From Escherichia phage vB_EcoM_Skers: a stretch of 64,000 nucleotides of DNA. The stretch is taken from the sequence record MW748999.1; one strand, 5' to 3'. Positions 53,420 through 54,118 of the stretch are shown here, piece after piece. The notes beneath the pieces were generated by a model. That model made no database searches, was not told the DNA's origin, and worked only from the letters and a program-made list of their open reading frames with translations. Position 1 is the first letter of the stretch, and each line of letters starts with the position of its first letter. A program made the translations under genes and the position numbers.

Positions 53420-54118
53420 CTAACCACGGGTATAGTGTTCCAGAACAACGGTCAGATGAATATATTCTAATAAATCCTTCCAAAAGTCAACATCTGGTTC
53501 TTCCGGCATACCGTTTTTCTTTGCCTCTTCACGCGCGAGTTTAACACGTTCGTAGAGATCTTTCAATTCTTCCCGCACATTATCAAAGGTTCTTTCTCCT
53601 AACTTACATGCTAAAATAGAACCACGTTTAGCGAGTGGGAATTGTAGATCACCTGTCTGATAGATTTCAAGTAGCTGATAACCAACACGCAGAGCATGAG
53701 AAAGATCTTTCCAGTTACTGAAATACTTTTCAGATTTGGCTACCTGCTTTTTGAGATAGCCAGACAAACCCCACATACCAACATGATAGAATTTATCTCG
53801 ATGTGTTCGGATGTATTCCCATTCTCTGGAGGATTCAATCAACATGTTACTAGGCGCGTGCACCATATCAATAGCGCCGATATCACCTTTACATGCCAGA
53901 TTGATAAACCGTTTTAGACTGAACATATTAACATCAATATCGTCTTTGGTGTTCTTGATACCTTGACCGCTAGTGCTTTGGTCATAGTGTTCTTTCATCG
54001 ATCCTAAGATAATTTCTTTCGCAGTCGGAACAAAGATACCACGATAATCTTTATCTGAATTTTCAGTATCAAGGCCGTATAAGTGAGATCCGAAGACCAT
54101 TTTAACCATTGTATGCAT
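53420..54118 (-). CDS. Pol-beta-superfamily nucleotidyltransferase of unknown substrate
   Basis: GSHLYGLDTENSDKD fits the minimal NTase motif GS-x(9-13)-DxD; helical C-terminal half. Confidence 0.5.
   Translation of the reverse strand: MHTMVKMVFGSHLYGLDTENSDKDYRGIFVPTAKEIILGSMKEHYDQSTSGQGIKNTKDDIDVNMFSLKRFINLACKGDIGAIDMVHAPSNMLIESSREWEYIRTHRDKFYHVGMWGLSGYLKKQVAKSEKYFSNWKDLSHALRVGYQLLEIYQTGDLQFPLAKRGSILACKLGERTFDNVREELKDLYERVKLAREEAKKNGMPEEPDVDFWKDLLEYIHLTVVLEHYTRG

Follow-up and report, generated by a model that had tools for sequence, protein, structure and literature searches.

A short-form NrdC.11 of the RlaP nucleotidyltransferase family in a Krischvirus coliphage, with a proposed role in RNA end repair

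The DNA analysed here is a stretch of 64,000 nucleotides (nt) of Escherichia phage vB_EcoM_Skers (sequence record MW748999.1), referred to below as the window. On its minus strand lies an uninterrupted open reading frame (ORF) of 232 codons at 53420..54118, with its ATG at 54116-54118 and its TAG at 53420-53422. We identify this ORF, with near certainty, as the Krischvirus orthologue of T4 NrdC.11, a Pol-beta nucleotidyltransferase (NTase) of the RlaP family. Identity over the region is 98.7% with Escherichia phage W115 and 90-99% with 58 records of Krischvirus, the T4-like coliphages related to RB49, Phi1 and JSE, and the window protein matches its W115 counterpart at 100%. Both the gene and its family are already known, the same protein being public as NrdC.11 or as "nucleotidyltransferase". 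The gene and the features read within and immediately before it are as follows.

53420..54118, minus strand: nrdC.11 coding sequence, 232 amino acids (aa), RlaP-family (PF10127) Pol-beta NTase in a short form without insert (Pfam, PHROG, BLASTP, RB49p098 and the AlphaFold2 model)
54047..54091, minus strand: GSHLYGLDTENSDKD, residues 10-24, the GS motif with the first two catalytic aspartates, D22 and D24
53933..53944, minus strand: DDID, residues 59-62, whose last residue, the third catalytic carboxylate D62, starts strand 62-67 (alignment and model)
53711..53737, minus strand: KSEKYFSNW, residues 128-136, the junction at which T4-type NrdC.11 carries an alpha/beta insert of 70-133 residues (alignments, insert-length census and long-form model)
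53687..53713, minus strand: WKDLSHALR, residues 136-144, the helical-domain motif equivalent to canonical RlaP (Y/W)DTKxxxHxxR (alignment)
53429..53491, minus strand: C-terminal helix, residues 210-230, putative counterpart of the last helix of PfRlaP (model and PMC12776372)
54126..54130, minus strand: ribosome-binding site GAGGG, 7 nt upstream of the ATG (read from the sequence)

Family membership is supported by independent profile and pairwise searches. The Pfam profile PF10127 (RlaP; full name "RNA repair pathway DNA polymerase beta family") matches the window protein with 52.6 bits, the curated cut-off being 23 (E = 6.6e-14), with residues 7-164 aligned to positions 24-175 of 249, and PHROG 388 'nucleotidyltransferase' matches it in two stretches (E = 3.4e-79). 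T4 NrdC.11 (336 aa) is found by BLASTP at E = 1e-50 with both termini aligned colinearly, and T4 nrdC.11 is recovered by tblastn in two pieces at about 45% identity; altogether the 232-aa query retrieves 1,723 phage records by tblastn. Reference records for RB49 (RB49p098), Phi1 and JSE label the gene 'nrdC.11: nucleotidyltransferase'. Consistent with this, nrdC.11 orthologues in T4-like genomes, RB49 included, were classed as COG3541 nucleotidyltransferases (Nolan et al. 2006, PMC1524935), and T4 NrdC.11 has been placed in PF10127 (PMC12776372). An NCBIfam search of the window protein returned no match, and PADLOC returned no NTase match, its sole match being an insignificant one to CARF/HEPN (E = 0.027). 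We note that many PF10127 NrdC.11 orthologues in GenBank and UniRef are named 'thioredoxin', 'glutaredoxin nrdC' or 'HNH homing endonuclease'. These names are a systematic annotation error and seem to have leaked from the nrdC.11 locus label or from mobD next to it.

With 48 homologues as input, AlphaFold2 gave a confident and compact model (predicted local distance difference test, pLDDT, 91; predicted template-modelling score, pTM, 0.87), in which an NTase domain is followed by a helical domain. After a first strand at residues 2-9, the GS motif opens a short helix, DxD opens strand 24-30 and D62 opens strand 62-67; helices then span residues 98-230 and end with the terminal helix at 210-230. 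Because this order of elements is the Pol-beta arrangement, the aspartates sit in an NTase fold context. Across the 48 homologues G10, S11, D22, D24, D60, D62, D84, W136, K137, H141, R144 and W213 are invariant, and G10, S11, D22, H141, R144 and D209 show no variation either in the short forms or in the canonical RlaP outgroups from mycobacteriophages and Bacillus phages. The two invariant residues D209 and W213 lie near or in the C-terminal helix. At three further sites a single sequence among the short and canonical proteins departs from the rest: P0142 has N in place of D24, LeBron gp32 has E instead of D at position 62, and BCU4 has R instead of K at position 137. The conserved WKDLSHALR motif may serve in substrate or nucleoside triphosphate (NTP) binding. 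P0142, an independent short form of 258 aa, reads SDTNY instead of SDxDY, so that its second catalytic aspartate is an asparagine, and it may be catalytically inactive.

Comparisons at the level of fold agree with the sequence assignment. Among predicted viral structures, an independently predicted model of this protein matches with a template-modelling (TM) score of 0.98, long NrdC.11-type models match at TMq 0.79-0.83, and canonical phage NTase models of 242-285 aa match end to end at TM ~0.72. The best PDB fold matches found by Foldseek are solved Pol-beta NTases with helical domains, including HalB, kanamycin NTase/ANT(4'), LinB and AadA. Sequence and profile searches of the PDB, run with the single protein, the clade, the short and canonical sequences together and the insert only, found no relative, in a PDB copy from which PfRlaP is apparently absent.

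These results bear out most of an earlier interpretation made from the letters of this stretch alone (the sequence-only reading). Its proposal of a Pol-beta-type NTase agrees with PF10127, PHROG 388 and the fold matches, and the profile search that it had suggested as a check places the protein above the PF10127 gathering threshold. The minimal motif on which it relied, GS-x9-13-D-x-D, is real: GSHLYGLDTENSDKD fits GS-x10-DxD at residues 10-24, and the strength of the two profile matches shows that this is not chance. The remainder of the protein, which it had described as helical, is so in the model, and D22, D24 and D62 lie on the expected Pol-beta strands. Its view that the protein could be placed in no T4 family by sequence is refuted by the BLASTP match to T4 NrdC.11 and by the annotation of RB49, Phi1 and JSE. 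Identity with a well-characterised T4 protein, which it had named as a reason to abandon its interpretation, applies only in part, in that the ORF is an orthologue of NrdC.11 but NrdC.11 is itself uncharacterised.

The window protein differs from most of its relatives in length. Almost all NrdC.11 homologues are 300-345 aa long, and we located the difference with an insert census over a 165-sequence alignment comprising 162 clade representatives and three canonical RlaP outgroups. Between the GYxxKQ and WKxxSHxxR helices, 157 of the 162 representatives carry 70-133 residues, and the other five (the window protein, P0002, P0142, P0153 and P0234) carry 9-18; the outgroups have 18-24 residues at this site and the window protein has 10, between Q125 and W136. 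In T4 NrdC.11 the block absent here spans residues ~135-238, about 105 in all, and takes in KYGxKGSR and YGERxxxA, two motifs that hardly vary among long forms. When a long T4-type homologue is modelled (pLDDT 86), the block forms a self-contained module at ~131-241, built of a helix, a beta-hairpin, a helix, three strands and two helices. Profile searches with the module alone found no Pfam family and no PDB sequence relative. Long forms interrupt the Pfam profile at ~143, whereas the short homologue P0002 aligns to it in one stretch (23-229 of 249), which identifies the module as an insertion specific to the T4-type clade.

The phylogeny indicates that the short architecture arose within this clade. 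In a neighbour-joining tree of 220 shared columns (200 bootstraps), long forms surround the short ones, which are never basal and never monophyletic; the window protein groups with P0002 in 77% of bootstraps, and the group with long-form P0121 added is recovered in 83%. Such nesting makes the Krischvirus architecture a secondary loss. We had considered the short form as the ancestral architecture, given its colinearity with the Pfam profile, and rejected it since short forms are nested and never basal. On this sequence evidence the module appears to have been lost at least three times independently in the clade, returning the protein to roughly the length of a canonical RlaP. The insert-less architecture and its repeated origin are a small, modest addition to the existing annotations.

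Several observations suggest that the short protein is functional. Six Krischvirus orthologues have a dN/dS (ratio of nonsynonymous to synonymous substitution rates) of 0.02-0.10, only 5 variable residues, an intact frame and identical length, and all 58 Krischvirus records contain a full-length DNA match to the gene (at least 80% coverage). P0002, a short homologue of 57% identity, keeps all catalytic residues and the same synteny on a metagenomic contig. The window protein likewise keeps every clade-invariant residue that lies outside the missing block.

The surroundings of the gene, named in RB49 as vs.6 (GrcA-like), vs.8, regB and vs.1, also differ from those in T4. In Krischvirus and on the P0002 contig nrdC.11 is located between regB and vs.6, and in T4 and on the contig of long-form P0003 it belongs to the tk-rI-mobD-nrdC.11-nrdC.10 region. 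The relocation and the loss of the insert are both specific to this lineage. The neighbouring features in the window are:

54149..54177, minus strand: sigma-70-like promoter candidate, TTGGCT-17 nt-TATGAT with an upstream TG (promoter scan; a consensus match, 9/12)
54171..54195, minus strand: intrinsic-terminator-like hairpin, a 10-bp stem followed by a T-run, which ends vs.6 (terminator scan)
54205..54621, minus strand: vs.6 orthologue, glycyl-radical GrcA-like protein (PF01228, E = 1.5e-16)
53204..53398, 52962..53222 and 52564..52902, minus strand: three small tandem paralogous ORFs of 64, 86 and 112 aa, lying between nrdC.11 and regB (cross-matching PHROG 6261 and 15978, whose function is not known)

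The record of phage GEC-3S annotates a terminator at the position equivalent to the hairpin between vs.6 and nrdC.11. Downstream of it, nrdC.11, the three small ORFs and regB form a tightly packed run on the same strand, within which further promoter-like sites occur at 52961..52933 and 52117..52089. The spacer between vs.6 and nrdC.11 (54119..54204) measures 86 nt in the window; at the same place JSE (L012) has an annotated homing endonuclease gene, the P0002 metagenomic contig (L008:3951-4547) an HNH/NUMOD4 ORF and Whisky (L010) an ORF labelled 'hypothetical protein', so that the spacer looks like a hotspot for homing-endonuclease insertion. The sequence-only reading was correct that a GrcA-like gene is adjacent. 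We considered a functional link to this vs.6 gene and rejected it, given the terminator-like and promoter-like sites that intervene, the homing endonuclease insertions and the lack of linkage in T4-type phages; the adjacency is probably incidental. Elsewhere in the genome, a PseT-like polynucleotide kinase/phosphatase and an Rnl1 (gp63)-type RNA ligase are present in 58/58 Krischvirus records, W115 included. In T4, the PseT kinase/phosphatase and the Rnl1 ligase are the tRNA-repair pair.

What is known of RlaP enzymes comes from bacteria. The family was defined by Burroughs and Aravind in 2016 (as cited in PMC12776372 and PMC7824862), takes its name from genomic association with RNA ligase and RNA-repair genes (PMC12776372), and had as its predicted task to put back nucleotides missing from damaged RNA ahead of ligation (PMC7824862, PMC12776372). 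A preprint of December 2025 reports that two Pseudomonas enzymes, PfRlaP and PaRlaP, add one or two nucleoside monophosphates to RNA 3'-OH ends from any NTP, and also from dATP, with a preference for Mn2+ and for the 5' half of a cleaved-tRNA mimic (PMC12776372). DNA and E. coli proteins were not acceptors, many E. coli RNAs were labelled, single-stranded ones included, and repair of a tRNA missing one nucleotide by bacterial RlaP increased its aminoacylation (PMC12776372). The crystal structure of PfRlaP comprises an N-terminal NTase domain and a C-terminal helical domain whose last helix packs on the NTase domain, and Rnl1, a 5'-phosphate ligase, takes 3'-OH ends such as RlaP leaves (PMC12776372).

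By analogy with PfRlaP and PaRlaP, we propose that the window NrdC.11 would add one or two nucleotides, without a template and from any NTP, to RNA 3'-OH ends, preferring the end at which a tRNA has been cut. Judging from genome content and the RlaP hypothesis in the literature, it would work during infection alongside the PseT-type kinase/phosphatase and the Rnl1-type ligase, restoring nucleotides trimmed from tRNA by host anticodon nucleases of the RloC type so that the ligated tRNA is functional. The protein would then be an accessory in counter-defence, one that the phage could do without on laboratory hosts. The sequence-only reading had left the target of the enzyme open. That is half true: two bacterial RlaPs use RNA 3'-OH ends (PMC12776372), and the role of the phage member is a matter of analogy. 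An NrdC.11 orthologue with a role in RNA or tRNA end repair is the best overall explanation of our data, and we regard it as moderately probable, with the biological role less sure than family membership.

Several points weigh against this explanation. The biochemistry derives from a preprint that is not peer-reviewed and from two Pseudomonas enzymes (PMC12776372) that by our comparison are distant from the window protein, and genome-reduction work found T4 nrdC.11 to be dispensable (PMC9825161). Among solved structures HalB, which synthesises DNA, comes nearest. In the genome nrdC.11 lies apart from the ligase and kinase genes, and hence has no operon-level link with them. The tree behind the inferred losses is a neighbour-joining tree of 220 columns with moderate support (77% and 83%). 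Finally, the lost block contains the near-invariant KYGxKGSR and YGERxxxA motifs, and canonical RlaPs have an arginine-containing stretch, RxELxxK(Y/H)G, that is likewise absent from the window protein; with both missing, substrate choice or activity may differ.

A first alternative would take the enzyme to another RNA. In Krischvirus nrdC.11 has left the T4 position and heads a run that ends in regB, preceded by the terminator-like hairpin and the promoter-like site, an arrangement consistent with an enzyme that adds nucleotides to RegB-cut transcripts after their 3'-dephosphorylation and thereby feeds early-mRNA turnover. The broad labelling of E. coli RNAs by bacterial RlaPs, single-stranded RNAs included, would fit such a role, as would the loss of a clade-specific module that, speculatively, recognises substrate. 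The argument is nonetheless one of synteny alone, further promoter-like sites lie inside the run, and in T4-type phages nrdC.11 is far from regB; we therefore consider mRNA-end tailing unlikely. A stronger version, in which insert-less NrdC.11 has been re-targeted from tRNA to the mRNA fragments produced by RegB and the kinase/phosphatase, and repeated module loss marks a recurrent substrate switch, strikes us as quite unlikely. If it were true, it would tie an RlaP enzyme to programmed mRNA turnover. The same loss could instead mean that the protein is a decaying or inactive remnant, disabled by removal of ~105 residues. The deletion does take out KYGxKGSR and YGERxxxA, and another short homologue, P0142, carries D24 -> N. 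Against this stand the purifying selection (dN/dS 0.02-0.10), the constant frame and length in six orthologues, the presence of the gene in 58/58 records, the retention of all catalytic residues in P0002 at 57% identity, the confident and compact fold, and the colinearity of the short architecture with the canonical RlaP profile. Independent loss on three or more occasions also suggests that the insert is dispensable, and we judge decay improbable.

Other alternatives would place the target outside RNA, and for each of them what resemblance exists is one of fold. Minimal nucleotidyltransferase (MNT) antitoxins AMPylate HEPN toxins, and a phage enzyme of this kind could inactivate a host HEPN ribonuclease of the PrrC, RloC or RnlA type. 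The window sequence is that of an RlaP and matches no MNT, NCBIfam or PADLOC family, the adjoining genes include no HEPN toxin, and bacterial RlaPs left E. coli proteins unlabelled (PMC12776372). HEPN-like C-terminal bundles are common among the matched NTases, kanamycin NTase too, so this similarity is uninformative on target, and protein nucleotidylylation seems to us no more probable than decay. HalB of the Hailong system is a tyrosine-primed enzyme that makes poly-dA and pairs with HalA (reviewed in PMC13434031), and its fold raises the idea of de novo DNA synthesis by the phage protein, yielding an oligodeoxyadenylate or other oligonucleotide decoy that keeps the HalA channel closed. Between the window protein and HalB (PDB 9dbh) we detected no sequence relationship, even with family profiles at E <= 10, and the priming tyrosine of HalB is not alignable; since the PDB sequence and profile searches were blank for HalB, the resemblance is architectural only. 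The TM score to HalB is 0.39-0.44, compared with 0.72-0.83 to viral RlaP-type models, and PADLOC gave no NTase match. The neighbours in the window are vs.6 and the PHROG 6261/15978 ORFs, with no HalA-like protein and no two-gene operon of the HalA type, and RlaP needs an RNA 3'-OH and adds only one or two nucleotides (PMC12776372). HalB-like synthesis is very unlikely on these grounds. Small-molecule nucleotidylylation of the aminoglycoside or lincosamide kind is extremely unlikely: the best PDB Foldseek matches do include kanamycin NTase/ANT(4'), LinB and AadA, but at 11-14% identity, TM <=0.44 and with no sequence-level relationship, and these matches follow from a shared NTase-plus-helical-domain architecture in a protein whose RlaP membership is clear. 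The evidence for all of these alternatives, whether fold-level similarity or synteny alone, is weak.

Set beside known systems, the RlaP-family NrdC.11 of the window is closest to T4 NrdC.11, with which its N-terminal ~130 and C-terminal ~95 residues are colinear and share the clade-invariant residues; T4 NrdC.11 has in addition the ~105-residue module (~135-238) and the mobD/nrdC.10 position, both of which the window protein lacks. With bacterial RlaP it shares PF10127, the three acidic residues, a length near that of the 249-position profile and, in its predicted model, the domain order and a terminal helix. It is nevertheless distant from the bacterial proteins, is phage-encoded and has no adjacent RNA ligase gene, and its partner ligase would be of the Rnl1 type and not RtcB. 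Canonical phage RlaPs, namely Myrna gp3 and LeBron gp32 from Mycobacterium phages and BCU4, Mater and BCD7 from Bacillus phages, align with it in one piece at 22-28% identity, and Mater and BCD7 supply the fold matches of TM ~0.72. The linker before the WK..H..R helix is ~8-14 residues shorter in the window protein than in these canonical proteins, which form a different and more distant clade, the window protein having reached a similar architecture by secondary loss.

As a gene call this ORF is ordinary and adds nothing new, and its value is practical. The short NrdC.11 is a naturally minimal and strongly conserved form, in a phage that grows on E. coli K-12, which makes it a convenient subject for asking whether phage RlaPs counter nucleotide-trimming anticodon nucleases. 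Comparison with the long T4 form would reveal what the extra module contributes.

We note some further features of the region and of related contigs. The vs.8 orthologue (54757..55248, minus strand; 163 aa, PHROG 1488) has a sub-threshold match to the circularly permuted YpsA SLOG family (PF12694, E = 0.083), and is possibly nucleotide-binding. The endolysin at 55305..55694 (minus strand) is an M15-family peptidase (PF13539, PHROG 465) and not a lysozyme of the T4 gp e type. On the 135-kb phage contig L013, which provides the context of long-form homologue P0004, a PARP-like protein (WGR/PARP_reg/PARP) and a Gad2-domain protein are encoded at most 6 kb from the RlaP gene.

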